DNA of 53,326 bases from a virus. A program made the position numbers. The DNA lies in IMG/VR virus record IMGVR_UViG_3300045988_173421, positions 1 through 53,326 of that record; one strand, 5' to 3'. This document shows positions 3,001-9,000 of the stretch, piece after piece (the first letter of the stretch is position 1; every line of letters starts with the position of its first letter).

Positions 3001-6000
3001 AGAATCGACTTATAAAAAGATTAAAAGAGTAAAGCTTTCGAAAATCACTCAAGAAGAACCTAATAGAATTTCTATAAAACAAGGTAGAAAAAAAATTGAC
3101 TTTTTATTGAAAAAAATTGAATTCTCCGACAAAAAAAATTCAACTGGTGGCGCATTACTCGGTGCTGCAATTGCTGGAACTGCTGGTGCTGTTATTGGTA
3201 GCTCGATGAACTCAAGTAAAGTCTATGCAAACTTATATGTTCGTCCATTAGATGAAAAAGGAGTGCTACATGTAATTCGTTTTTATACTGACAATAAAGA
3301 AGCTGCTCAACTCTTAAGACTTCAGGCAACGGAGGATTAAAATGAAAAAACTAACAATCGCATGCATAATCTGCTCTACCCTGCTCTTCTCGGCGTGTTC
3401 GACTGATAAGAAAACGGATACGACTGATTCGACATCCAAGCAAAAAATTGAGGCTAGAAAAACCGAGGATTCTAAGAAAAAGAAAGCTGCTGAGGAAAAG
3501 AAAGTCGCTGAGGAAGCAGAAAAGAAGAAACAAGATGAAATTACTAAAAAGGTTTCTGAAGCAGATACTGCCATGAAAGCTGCTGAAACAAATCCAACTG
3601 ACGAAACTGTTGAAGCAGCAAAGAAATCAGTTGAAGCAATACCAGGTGGTAATAACGAATTGCAAAAAAGACTTGAAGCAGTTACAGCAAAACTAGCAAC
3701 AATAAAACAACAGGCAACCGTGCAAGCTCAACAACAAAGTCCTGTTCAAAATGATGCAGACGGTAACGGAATACCTGATGATTCTCCTTATAACAACACA
3801 ACACCTGAAGAACGTGCTAGAGGTGCTCAAATGGAAGCTGATGCTCAAACTCGATATTGGGAAGCATATAATAATGGTGCGAATCCTGATGATGCTCTTG
3901 CTTATGCAGATGGTAGATCTGATAATTACAATCAACAACAAAACGATGCAGTCGCTCAGGTTGATCAGTATCGATCTGACTTCAAAGCACAGAATGGACG
4001 CGAACCTACATCAGGTGAAATTCAGAGTCAATGGTTACAGGAACAAGGTATTCAGTAAAGGAGAATGATTGCGATCTTGGATTGGTCAAACAAAGTATAC
4101 GGTGAGTTAAGCGAGTTCGAAAAATTTAAAGCTGATAAGTTGATAAAACAAGCTCTAGATAGCACGCACAATTATAAGGGCGAAGTTCCGAATGAACATG
4201 ATAGAATGGTCATTCGCGATATGATTAGAAATAATCTTACCTTATTGAATTGAGCCAGTAATAACTAGCAGCTCTTCTCCCCCATCGCTGGCGATCTTAT
4301 ATAACTGGTGACTACTTCTACCTGCCATAATTGGGAGTTGAAATGAATTTTTTTGGAGGATGCAAATGGCAACTTTGTTAGTGTTAGTAGGATTTTTTGG
4401 ATTTATTTTTGGTGTAGTAAGATTAATTAGAGCGTTTATCAAGAAATCACCTAAGAAGCCTGAACTTTTAATTATTCTTGGTACTGTTATTGTATTTTTT
4501 GCTGGTGGATCTCTCTTAGAACCATCTGAACAAAAGTCAGCAGAAACAACCATAAGCAGCACACAGCAAAGTAAAATTAAAAGTAAAACTGCTTCAACCT
4601 CTAGTGAAACAAAGAAAGAACAAAACAAAACTTCGGATGAAAAGAATAAGCAAAAACAAGCTCTTATCTCATTTAATGATCGTGTAAAGCAAGATAATAG
4701 TAATCTTGCAAATATGGAATACAATGGCACGCAAACGATTGAAGTTAATGATAATAATCCAACTTTTTCGGAAGATGATTTATCTTTGGCCAATAAAGCT
4801 TGGGAAAAATACGGGAACCTTGATCAACTAAACCGTGCTACTTCTGCCGAAGCTATGCTGAATCAATCATTGATGCCTACAGCTAAACGTGGAGATATTT
4901 CTAATGTCAAACCTACTGGCTGGCATAATAAGAAAATTGGTAAAGGATATCTCTATAATCGATCTCATTTGATTGGCTATACCCTTTCTGGCGAGAACGA
5001 TAACTGGAAGAATCTGATCACAGGAACAGCACAGTTAAATAATCCAGAAATGCTTCGTTATGAAATGGATATAAAATATTATCTGGAGAAGAGTAAAGAT
5101 AACTATGTACGGTACTCAGTAACTCCTGTATTTCGTGGTGATGAGTTACTCGCTCGTGGCGTTCATTTAATGGCTCAATCAATAAAATCTGATGACATCA
5201 AATTTAATGTTTATATCTTCAATGTACAAGATGATGTAACTTTGAATTATTCAGATGGAACAAGCCAAACTAAAAGCGAGATTCTGGCTGCTCAACAAAA
5301 AGAAGAAGAAAGAAAGAATGCTGAAATCAAAGCTCAACAAGCTGCTGAAAAACAACAGCGAATTGAAGCACAAAAGCAAGCTGAGGCAGCTCAAAACGCA
5401 GCAAATGAACAACAAGCAGCCGCTACTCAAACAAATGGTCCAGAGTACATTGATGCTAATGGAAATGGATTAATCAAAGGTTCCAACAATGGAATATATC
5501 ACGTTCCAGGTAGCAGGTATTACGACAAAACAACTAACCCAGCAGCTTGGTTTAAAACTGTTGACGAAGCTGAAAGAGCTGGATATCGAGCACCGAGAAA
5601 TTAGATCTACCCTCCCCATCTGGCGCCGCCGGTTCGATTCCGGCTTGGGGAATAAAAAACAAATTTTTTGGGAGGTAAATATGTCGAACGCATCTGAAGA
5701 TCCAAAAATAATATCTTTCATTAATATGAAAGGCGGTGTTGGTAAAACAACTCTTTGTAAGGAAGTTGGATATCACTTAGCAAAAATCAGAAAGAAAAGA
5801 GTTTTATTGATTGATACCGATCCACAAGCTAATTTAACTCAATCATTTTTTAAAAAGTTTCATTTAAAACAACCTGGTTCAATGTTAGAAGGTGAAGACT
5901 CTTTTGAAGAATCTTCAGCAAGTATCAATAATCTCTTCAAGAGTGATGGTATAGACCCTTCAAAAAAACTAGTAATAAGAAATCTAGATGAACAATTATC

Positions 6001-9000
6001 AATTATCCCTGGTGATCTAAATACTGTTTTTATGTCTAGAAATACTGATTCCTCAACTATGAATCAGTCTATTTACAATTTTCTTTTTATGAATTCTAGT
6101 TTTGAAAAATCTGAATACGATTATATTTTGCTGGATTGTCCACCGACATACTCTGAATACACAATCTCTGCCATCTTAGCTAGTACACATTACATCATTC
6201 CAGTTAAACCTGACAATTATTCAGTTCTTGGAATACAGATGCTAGAAAAAGTGATTCAGGATATAAAGAAGAAAAATCCTATTTACTTTAAAGAAAAACC
6301 AATAAAGAATATTGGTATAATTTTTACGGATTTGCCCCTAAGGGTTGCAACTGGACAGGCAGAAACGATAAAATTGATCAAAGAAACTAAAAAACTGGAA
6401 CCTTTTTACTTTTTCCAATCACATTTTTTAAAAAATAATGGCTTTTTCAAAAAGCTTGATTACTTTGTTGACGCCAGAAACAGTGAAAAGTCAAAGGAAA
6501 ATCTTTATGCATTAGTTTCTGAATTAATAGGGAGGTTATAAAATGCAACCCAATACTCAGTTAGAAGTTTACTTATCAAAGATTAACAAACGTACTCCAA
6601 TTGAAGAAATGAAATTTACTCTTTATGGTTGTGCCACAATTTTCTTTTTATCAAAGCAATTGTTTCCACTCAATAAAGATATACAGATTTTTATCAATAG
6701 TTTTAAACTCAATCCAGTAGAAAAAAATTATGGTGATTATCTTTACAAAAGCAGAACCTTGCTTTTATCTAGGATAATTCGTGATATTAAAGTTTCAGAA
6801 GTAGAAAGATTGACATTATATATTAATGCAATGAAAGCATTAGTATTCTCTGATAGTTATAATTATAAAGAAACAACTGATAAGGATACAAAGAAGAATT
6901 ACTTCGATGAACTATTTAATCAATTTGGAGGATAGTATGAAAATAGATAATGAAAAATACATGAACTATTTAAATTTCGTAAATTCAAACTATCCAAACT
7001 CTGATTGGGGGGATTCAAAAAAAGAGAAAACTATTTACATGAACATTTCAAATTCTCTTTCTTGCTTAGATATCTACACTTCCGTAAATCATAAAAAATG
7101 TATTCATTCGGATCTTTTAGATGACCTAATAGTTTTGCTCCGACATTATCTTTTTTTATTACCCCTTAAGAATCCTATTTCTTATCATGCGATTATGCGA
7201 GCAATTTGTGAAACAATAATGAAAATTATGTACTCATCTATATATCCAAACGAAACTTCCGAGTCTATACGAAAACTAAATTATAGATATTTAAGTGAGA
7301 CTATTGACTCCGACGTAACCCTAAAAAGCATCGTTGGTGAAAATACTTTAAAAATTAAAAACAGTTATGCAAGTTCTTCAAATCAAATACATTCAAAAAC
7401 TGGATTCAGTCAATTCAATGCTCCTTACCTTGCAAATTTTTGGAGTTCTTCATTTTTATCAATAGATACAATGAAAAATGATTCTTCAACTATTTATGAG
7501 TTTATTTCTAAGAGTATTTATGTTTTGAATAAGTATGATTCAAATGATTTCGGTCATAATCAAAAAAATATACTACTAAACATGATATAGAATCTTAAGC
7601 CTCCGGGCTTTTCTTTTAACGAACAAAACGAACATACATTCGTATTCGTTGCTGTTTTATTCGATAGTCTAAGGAAACGTGTGAAAATAATCTTTTTTTG
7701 CACGTGTTTTCGAATCGTATACAAAATATTTCGAAAGGAAATGATTTTATGTCACCATATGAATTGAGAGAAAGACTAAAAAAAGAGGTACCAGAAGTAA
7801 AGATATACCCTATCCTTACAAAGTTTAGTTACAGTGAGGAAGAATATCAAGAAGAATTGAAAAATCAACTAGATTTAAAAAAAGATATTGAAGCTGGAAA
7901 TGTGATTTCACGCCCTGTTTATACCTGGCAAGAGAAAGAACTAAAAATGGATAAGTTTTATGAAAAAGGATGGTATAAACCAAAGTTCTATACGCTTCCA
8001 AAATCTATGTTCAGGAGTGAAGACTGATGGCTTCAATAAAACCGTATAATTTAAAAAATGGTGAGCTGCGCTACGAAGTATTTATTTCTAACGGAGTGGA
8101 CCCTGGTACCAAACGTCAAAATAAAATTCATAAGAAAGGCTTCAGATCTTGGGATGAAGCAGATACTTTCGCAAAGATTACCGAAGGAGAAATCGCTAAA
8201 GGAAACTATAAAAAAGATGATGTAAAGCATTTGACAATTGAGCACTTTCTAAAGACGTGGATCACTGATTACAAATTAAGTGTTAAGGAAGGTACTAGAA
8301 TTGTTCATCGGGACAATATTCGGATGTATATAAACCCTTATATTGGAAAACATCGTTTAACTACCTACTCTCGTGCGGATCATCAGAAGTTCATTAATAT
8401 GCTATTCACACTTAATGGAAAAGGCAGAAGTAAGAAAGGCTTATCTTTTAATACTGTTAAATTAGTAAACGCCACTCTTTCGAATGCTTATAAAAAAGCG
8501 ATACAGCTTGGATATGTAAGTGAAAACCCAACAGACTTTGTGGAATTTCCCTTACCGCCGAAAAAAGAGAAGATTCCTCCCCACTATACCGCAAGCGAAG
8601 TGGATTTATTTTACGAAGCAGCTAAGAAAGAAAAAGAACCATTTTGGTATCCGTTCTTCTTGTTAATCTTTGATTGTGGATTAAGAAAAGCAGAAGTGAT
8701 GGCATTAAGATGGTCAGATTTTAATTTCGAAAAGAATTTTGTTGATGTGCAGCGAGAAAGACTCTATCGTGCTGAAGTTAAAGAAAACAAAGATGCGATC
8801 ATAATTGATGACACAAAGACTCCAGCTGGCGAACGTGATCAACCAATCACACAAAGAACAAAATTTGCTCTACTCGAATTCTATAAATATTTTTATGATC
8901 TTATAGGAGTTACACCCTTACAGAAAAATAATTCTGATTATGTGTTTATCTATACCTCAAGCAGCTCAAAGGGCAAAATAGTTCGAAATCGTTCAGTGAA

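Follow-up and report, generated by a model that had tools for sequence, protein, structure and literature searches.

The window that we analysed comprises positions 1 to 53,326 of the IMG/VR virus record IMGVR_UViG_3300045988_173421 and is the genome of a temperate siphophage, assembled as a circle. At positions 5681-7590 it carries three coupled genes, which encode a ParA/Soj-type ATPase and two small proteins called here ORF2 and ORF3 (ORF, open reading frame). We propose that the prophage carries this trio as a moron and that the three genes work as a conflict system. We lean towards an anti-phage defence of the abortive-infection or toxin-antitoxin (TA) type, in which ParA, ORF2 and ORF3 would serve as switch, adaptor and effector. 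Our confidence is good in the weaker claim, in which the cassette serves conflict or defence as opposed to partition. The features of the cassette are the following:

5598-7645, plus strand: extent of the exchangeable cassette, taken from the block in common with the Enterococcus dongliensis prophage L001 (86.7% identity, blastn)
5681-6541, plus strand: ParA/Soj-type deviant Walker A ATPase of 286 amino acids (aa), with the ribosome-binding site (RBS) GGGAGG at 5670-5675, 5 nt upstream
6543-6935, plus strand: ORF2, 130 aa, made of a helical bundle, a linker and a C-terminal helix
6937-7590, plus strand: ORF3, 217 aa, all-helical and HEPN-like
7597-7619, plus strand: intrinsic terminator found by a terminator scan, with the hairpin AAGCC-TCCG-GGCTT at 7597-7610 and then a run of T

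The three genes share the plus strand and are separated by gaps of only 1 nt. An alternative in-frame start of ORF3, the ATG at 6907, is less likely because of the RBS and the N-termini of the homologues. The terminator after ORF3 is also conserved in L001 and in a further trio locus, L014. The G+C content of the trio is 28.7%, compared with 37.6% for the window. It is the lowest value among 1,029 segments of 1,910 nt each, and lies 3.7 standard deviations under the mean. Immediately outside 5598-7645, blastn and a DNA alignment of the left border detect no homology to L001 on either side. Judged by this composition and by its discrete borders, the cassette is foreign to its host phage. The original prediction had reached the same view from the AT-richness of the genes.

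The first gene product is a clear member of the ParA/Soj family. It matches the Pfam models AAA_31 (1e-34; 120 bits, with a cut-off of 27) and CbiA (3e-16), and it is assigned to PHROG 164. The segments NMKGGVGKTT, LLIDTDPQAN and YILLDCPP correspond to the deviant Walker A, Walker A' and Walker B motifs, as had been read from the sequence before. The 11 trio-linked ParA homologues keep Walker A, DxDPQxN and Walker B without variation, so the window protein is predicted to be a catalytically competent ATPase. ParA/Soj proteins form dimers with ATP, and their binding to DNA is non-specific. The nearest solved relatives are the Soj proteins, pNOB8 ParA and the delta protein of pSM19035, and ParF is also among the solved relatives. 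The score falls under the cut-off of every NCBIfam partition equivalog (ParA_partition, RepA, PrgP and SopA), the best being ParA_partition with 74 bits against the 180 required. No model of the ABC or SMC type in Pfam or NCBIfam matches it. In PADLOC-DB 2.0, its sole match is to the P-loop of PDC-M28B (E 6e-5).

Since ParA is a true Soj/ParA relative and its motifs are intact, the trio could be a type I partition module. ORF2 would then be a divergent centromere-binding protein and ORF3 an accessory protein, and together they would segregate an episomal (phage-plasmid) copy. Some Firmicute phages carry parA, and a second Xer-like recombinase is indeed present elsewhere in the window, as had been noticed earlier. 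The contig is also circular. Positions 1-55 and 53272-53326 are identical, and this 55-nt overlap of the ends indicates a circular assembly of about 53.27 kb, in the excised or virion form. The location of the trio in bacterial genomes argues otherwise. ParA, ORF2 and ORF3 are identical to proteins of Enterococcus avium. The complete E. avium chromosome CP034169.1 (4.79 Mb) contains the same trio, followed by the same 92-aa gene and integrase, directly beside the host gene pgi, and the exact trio is integrated next to pgi with this integrase in other genomes as well. Moreover, the E. dongliensis prophage has a stretch homologous to window positions 9245-9425 where its integrase meets pgi (L001 12031-12210), the 3' end of pgi included. 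The attP site is thus likely to lie at about 9245-9425, downstream of int, where it matches the 3' end of pgi. With this attP and the integration at pgi, the phage is an ordinary integrating one, and its attP does not coincide with the tRNA-like piece upstream of the trio that is described below.

Other observations also stand against partition. The region 5550-8050 has no iterons or parS-like repeats, with no repeat family of more than two copies and no tandem array. A tblastn of ORF3 against 72,556 plasmid records found no homologue. In the same set ORF2 has one match, which lies between housekeeping genes on a 2.1-Mb Fusobacterium replicon. ORF2 shows no similarity to ParB, helix-turn-helix (HTH) or ribbon-helix-helix (RHH) proteins. 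Further copies of the trio are found after an endolysin gene and inside restriction-modification (R-M) and McrBC islands. The partition-type ParA of phage EF62phi, which we take to be extrachromosomal, shares only 34% identity with the window ParA, along 65% of the query. Taken together, the chromosomal integration, the lack of iterons and repeats and the absence of ORF3 from plasmids rule out a routine partition role, and we regard any partition module here as very improbable. In the type Ib systems (ParA with ParB, ParG or omega), as in the trio, the gene of a deviant Walker A ATPase is tightly coupled, within one operon, to that of a small protein behind it. These systems differ from the trio in their centromere repeats and RHH or HTH partner, whereas the trio has a third conserved gene, is integrated in the chromosome and is absent from plasmids. 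Neither of the two readings raised with the original prediction, episomal maintenance of a phage-plasmid and a divergent ParB/centromere-binding pair with parS iterons, is therefore retained.

The position of the trio in the phage genome supports a defence role. The cassette occupies an exchange slot with the following elements:

4360-5604, plus strand: membrane-anchored non-specific nuclease of the lysogeny module, just before the tRNA-like piece
5613-5652, plus strand: tRNA-like minihelix at the left edge of the swap slot, unique in the window
5613-5618, plus strand: 5' strand of the minihelix acceptor, followed by the linker (5619-5627) and the T-stem (5628-5632 with 5640-5644)
5633-5639, plus strand: T-loop TTCGATT, followed beyond the T-stem by the 3' strand of the acceptor (5646-5651) and the discriminator A (5652)
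7749-8027, plus strand: 92-aa gene (PHROG 2240, function unknown), in the constant right flank of the slot
8027-9244, plus strand: tyrosine integrase (Phage_integrase, 7e-26), also in the constant right flank

The order in the slot is minihelix, variable cassette, the 92-aa gene in some cases, and int. The pair formed by the 92-aa gene and the integrase also stands to the right of the slot in the loci L028-L032 and L040. Between L032 or L040 and the window, the nuclease is 94-95% identical, the 92-aa protein 93-96% and the integrase 98.5-98.8%, and the cassette enclosed by them differs. It encodes SIR2_2 in L040 and other genes in L032 (for example, a 76-aa gene and what follows it). These near-identical flanks around different cassettes identify the minihelix as the left edge of an exchange slot. 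Across the Enterococcus-type phage contigs of IMG/VR that have the minihelix (L032-L041), the genes after it encode SIR2_2 (twice), TIR_2, AAA_15/AAA_21 ATPases of two kinds, HipA_2 and another ParA. The ParA trio is one allele of this slot, alongside recognised defence domains. The earlier suggestion of an integrase-proximal hot spot for anti-phage genes is well borne out by this content. The defence cassette proposed with it gains support from the genomic context, that is, from the slot alleles and from the R-M and McrBC neighbours in Paenibacillus; a defensive function is what this context predicts.

A comparable organization is known from the defence hot spots of P2- and P4-type prophages (Rousset et al. 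2022, PMC9122126). Those too are fixed slots with conserved phage flanks, where mutually exclusive defence cassettes occupy otherwise near-identical phages. In contrast, the slot described here belongs to Enterococcus-type siphophages, lies between the lysogeny morons and the integrase, and has a minihelix at its left edge. We found no description of a minihelix-marked Enterococcus hot spot in the literature that was searched; here and below, most subscription journals were outside its coverage.

The minihelix has the sequence TCCCCA-(T)-CTGGCGCC-GCCGG-TTCGATT-CCGGC-T-TGGGGA-A. It consists of a 6-bp acceptor stem, with both strands present, and a T arm with a canonical T-loop; the D and anticodon arms are lacking. 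ARAGORN calls no gene at 5613-5652, and Rfam gives no tRNA match at E values up to 10. At most about 10 nt separate the start of the element from the stop codon of the upstream gene, and this gene is a different one in the window, in L001 and in L014. It precedes the distant Loigolactobacillus trio as well, where changes have occurred on both sides of paired positions. A pattern scan recovered the minihelix in 11 viral contigs. Among 12 distinct versions, 93.9% of the cells are paired and 4 of the 11 pairs have changed on both sides. One acceptor pair, for example, appears as A-U, G-C and U-A. Covariation reaches 0.253, compared with 0.100 in shuffled alignments (0 of 500 attain the observed value) and at most 0.07 in slid controls. 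Columns fixed by the search pattern cannot covary, so the pairs left free by the pattern account for this signal. Folding of the tRNA-like region as a single sequence is no better than that of shuffles (z of -0.29 and +0.50).

This element had been described as a truncated tRNA 3' end, an att-like scar of insertion or exchange. The tRNA-like piece is real and unique. Its interpretation has to change, since both acceptor strands are present, the minihelix covaries, and the attP lies downstream of int. We also considered a decaying scar, in view of a 1-nt deletion in L014, and dropped this option given the compensatory changes in the distant L026 and in ten more viral copies. Most other trio loci lack the minihelix, so it is a feature of the slot rather than of the system. 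Our guess is that it may act as an RNase P/Z processing site, as an mRNA-stabilising site or as a recombination target.

The three genes travel together. In every sufficiently long contig examined, ParA is followed by an ORF2 relative of 113-154 aa and by a third gene of 216-251 aa, in the same order and on the same strand, so the co-occurrence that had been suggested as a check is indeed observed. ORF3 is rare, as it accounts for 9 clusters when 5.8 billion proteins are grouped at 90% identity. The exact sequence occurs in 218 indexed sample blocks. Among 1.84 billion representatives, a profile search returned 49 full-length relatives of 215-250 aa. The hosts are Enterococcus, Streptococcus, Lactococcus, Loigolactobacillus, Paenibacillus, Metabacillus, Lysinibacillus and Fusobacterium, that is, Bacilli and one Fusobacterium. 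In four loci the third gene is too divergent for the hidden Markov model, yet it keeps the same two motifs. Two GenBank phages, Lactococcus phage PLg-TB25 and Streptococcus phage Javan1, carry the trio with its genes unnamed or unannotated. These two copies were reached solely through ParA and profile comparison. Neither a megablast of the cassette against 50,697 phage records nor a tblastn of the window ORF2 and ORF3 against phages gave a match, and a genome scan with the close ORF3 alignment found nothing. For ORF2, a genome scan with a trimmed alignment was successful.

The Javan1 record (locus L012, MK448665) contains at 4914-5255 an unannotated ORF of 113 aa, between the annotated parA and a hypothetical gene. 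Its product (LSKDLFKHN...YVMRSRTMIVARLTREI) is a clear member of the ORF2 family that the GenBank record misses.

Four kinds of location were observed. First, the trio lies in the repressor-integrase interval of prophages, sometimes directly between the cI and ImmA genes. Second, in E. faecalis prophages it is found at the opposite end, after the endolysin and before host genes. Third, it sits next to defence genes in Paenibacillus. In P. antarcticus its neighbours are a DUF3427 helicase and all components of a type I R-M system (HsdRSM), and in P. faecis it is placed between an AAA_22 + cold-shock-domain protein on one side and McrB/McrC on the other. Finally, it stands alone amid housekeeping genes in Fusobacterium and in Streptococcus oralis.

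The S. oralis copy (L024, approximately 6060-8000) lies between a T-box leader (AAATTAGGGTGGAACCGCG, followed by a terminator-like hairpin) and glyQ. In the frame that it shares with glyQ, its third gene meets no stop codon before glyQ. Possibly an insertion has brought the trio under tRNA-Gly-responsive control here; a quirk of assembly or annotation is the other possibility.

The stand-alone copies in Fusobacterium and S. oralis are compatible with another explanation, in which the trio is an addiction (toxin-antitoxin) module that stabilises the prophage or island and has no anti-phage activity. ORF3 would be the toxin, and ParA with ORF2 the antidote. The tight coupling of the operon agrees with it, and so does a prediction made for gene dyads of ParA/Soj and a HEPN protein of the MAE_18760 family, which were proposed to be toxin-antitoxin pairs (Anantharaman et al. 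2013, PMC3710099). Conversely, SIR2, TIR and ABC-ATPase defence genes are alleles of the trio in its slot, and R-M and McrBC systems are its neighbours. This allelism and these neighbours point to defence over pure addiction, and we consider a module with addiction as its only role unlikely. Both functions can coexist, as many TA systems abort infection too.

The proteins encoded by the second and third genes have no significant match in Pfam, NCBIfam or PADLOC 2.0. This agrees with the original prediction, which described two tightly linked downstream ORFs without recognisable domains. Nor does either of them give a signal of a DNA-binding domain. ORF2 comprises a helical bundle (residues 1-101), a disordered linker (105-119) and a conserved C-terminal helix, NYFDELFNQF. 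It also carries an invariant SRT..R..R helix. Its sole PHROG match is PHROG 6264, without known function.

ORF3 presents a more informative pattern. R88, S148 and H152 never vary among 51 relatives of about 20% identity, and E92 is kept in 48 of these sequences. Such conservation at this level of identity resembles an active site. The family motif is [YF]-G-x-x-S-x-x-x-H. E92-x3-K96 lies on the helix 80-102, an insert covers 103-126, and H152 ends the long helix 127-151. In most of the sequences shown, a K or R follows E92 four residues on, which gives the Ex3[KR] pattern. In a survey of HEPN proteins, helix 2 bears the acidic residue of Ex3[KR], an insert separates this helix from helix 3, and the catalytic motif ends helix 3 (PMC3710099). 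The topology of ORF3 fits this layout. We predict an all-helical, HEPN-like scaffold with an R/E...S-x3-H polar cluster and RNase activity.

Several results weigh against the assignment of ORF3 and against the defence function built on it. The canonical HEPN motif Rx4-6H is lacking, as there is no arginine 5-7 residues ahead of the invariant histidine. No HEPN profile matches significantly; in Pfam, 1 of 61 ORF3 family members matches HEPN_STY4199 with an E value of 0.01. The missing arginine and profile match are the reason why we call ORF3 HEPN-like and not a member of the HEPN family. A weak match to CTD11 of ABC-3C (E 0.043, 14.8 bits against a cut-off of 27.7) is below threshold and comes from only one or two members. 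Foldseek against the Protein Data Bank (PDB) returns nothing significant for ORF3 (best E 0.39, and 1.8 for AbiV, 9bj6), and a profile search against PDB sequences yields only composition-driven noise. The absence of ORF2 and ORF3 from PADLOC 2.0 counts on the same side; among the 51 relatives of ORF3, PADLOC-DB 2.0 gives two isolated matches of about 1e-3. Finally, the hot-spot position is guilt by association and not functional proof.

This insecure HEPN assignment, with its missing arginine, leaves some room for a system that acts on DNA. In such a system, ParA with non-catalytic ORF2 and ORF3 proteins would bind the phage or plasmid DNA of an invader or the host nucleoid. It could block the replication or segregation of the invader (superinfection exclusion), or tune host division or prophage induction. 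ATPases of the ParA/MinD group are established positioning machines bound to DNA or membranes, which agrees with this possibility. However, the (nearly) invariant R88, E92, S148 and H152 look like an active site, and ORF2 and ORF3 lack the DNA-binding signal. A purely DNA-directed role seems to us quite improbable.

Under the conflict system that we favour, ParA would be a nucleotide-dependent switch or sensor. ORF2 would be the adaptor and partner of ParA, with the SRT..R..R helix possibly stimulating ParA or docking onto it. ORF3 would be the effector, an RNase-type toxin that cuts RNA. In a lysogen, the operon would be transcribed with the repressor-integrase (lysogeny) module, and ParA and ORF2 would keep the effector inactive. 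Infection by another phage might perturb ParA through DNA, the nucleoid, ATP or a phage protein. The effector would then be released, and translation would be shut down. The conserved gene order, the intact ATPase motifs, the folds and motifs, the genomic slots and the allelism with recognised defence genes are observed; the physical interaction among the three proteins, the RNase activity, the trigger and the anti-phage phenotype are inferred.

A more specific version, possible although doubtful, would make the trio a new class of anti-phage system, a guard on chromosome integrity. A nucleoid-bound dimer of ParA with ATP, together with ORF2, would sequester the HEPN-like RNase. Damage or remodelling of the nucleoid by a phage, or a phage DNA-mimic protein, would free it. 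Independently of this, the minihelix would be a functional RNA or DNA signal of a site where Enterococcus-type prophages exchange defence cassettes, either as an RNase P/Z site through which cassette mRNAs are uncoupled and stabilised or as a recombination target.

One of the closest known systems is the dyad of ParA/Soj with MAE_18760. It also places a ParA/Soj ATPase beside a HEPN-type helical protein on mobile or conflict loci, and the NTPase was proposed to control an RNase toxin. On the other hand, the trio has an obligatory middle protein of about 130 aa, and ORF3 shows S-x3-H instead of Rx4-6H and has no HEPN match in Pfam. In the literature searched we found no experimental follow-up of this dyad and no named ParA-based defence system, the 2013 prediction being the only precedent.

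The Lamassu and ABC-3C systems share the three-gene logic. They combine an ATPase, a small helical middle component (LmuC) and an effector (LmuA), and they are carried by prophages and defence islands. The ATPase of the trio is a SIMIBI-class ParA, whereas LmuB is an ABC ATPase similar to SMC and Rad50. ORF2 matches no ABC-3C middle-component (MC) family. We considered membership of the trio in Lamassu/ABC-3C and rejected it, given the wrong class of ATPase and a CTD11 match that stays below threshold. AbiV and, more loosely, RnlA and LsoA are non-canonical HEPN toxins of abortive infection. ORF3 has no detectable sequence relation to them, and its structural comparison with AbiV was given above. 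AbiV is controlled by an RNA antitoxin and has no linkage to ParA.

A prophage hot spot that carries an NTPase, its adaptor and an effector follows a known logic. New elements are the class of ATPase in this role, two uncharacterised protein families and the slot tagged by a minihelix, none of which is present in Pfam, NCBIfam, PADLOC 2.0 or the searchable literature. If the trio protects against phages, it would add a defence architecture with a ParA/Soj positioning ATPase as its NTPase core. It would also give a first experimental handle on the ParA-HEPN pairing predicted in 2013. Since common prophages of E. avium and E. faecalis carry the trio, it could affect phage therapy and gut phage ecology. 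Likewise, the minihelix offers a simple sequence tag for a defence hot spot. The scan with it immediately recovered SIR2, TIR, ABC-ATPase and HipA-like cassettes, and it is thus usable for mining further systems.

The rest of the lysogeny module and the second recombinase are located as follows:

828-1262, plus strand: repressor of the lysogeny module
1292-1759, plus strand: ImmA-like M78 peptidase of the lysogeny module
between the M78 peptidase and the nuclease, plus strand: membrane and lipoprotein morons of the lysogeny module
46969-47979, minus strand: XerC/D-like tyrosine recombinase (Phage_integrase 1e-27, SAM_4/SAM_1), inside the early/replication region

The order on the plus strand is thus repressor, M78 peptidase, morons, nuclease, tRNA-like piece, trio, 92-aa gene and integrase. 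The stop codon of the 92-aa gene overlaps the start of the integrase (ATGA). This gene is a companion of this type of integrase and is missing in L001; its product may be an excisionase or directionality factor. The Xer-like recombinase could serve in dimer resolution. On the minus strand, the early operon starts at cro (519-770) and runs across the ends of the window into replication genes near 53 kb.

Between the attP and the lysis genes there is a Y-family DNA polymerase similar to UmuC/ImpB (10648-11910, plus strand) and an abasic-site peptidase of the SRAP/YedK type (12631-13230). They form a pair of SOS or damage-tolerance morons, and the metagenome contig L030 has the same arrangement. 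ARAGORN calls two tRNA genes, both on the minus strand, and neither matches the minihelix. The first (14357-14428) lies beside the endolysin and has an undetermined identity, with a two-base anticodon readout 'ca'. The second is a tRNA-Met within the packaging region (39829-39903).

The moron block from ImmA to the minihelix (window 1809-5604) varies among near-identical E. avium prophages, as seen in the comparison with L028-L031. One version contains genes of 203, 238 and 62 aa and the nuclease. Another contains genes of 298 and 184 aa, DUF5067 and a gene of 208 aa. In addition, L028 encodes an extra HSDR_N protein after a LexA-type repressor.

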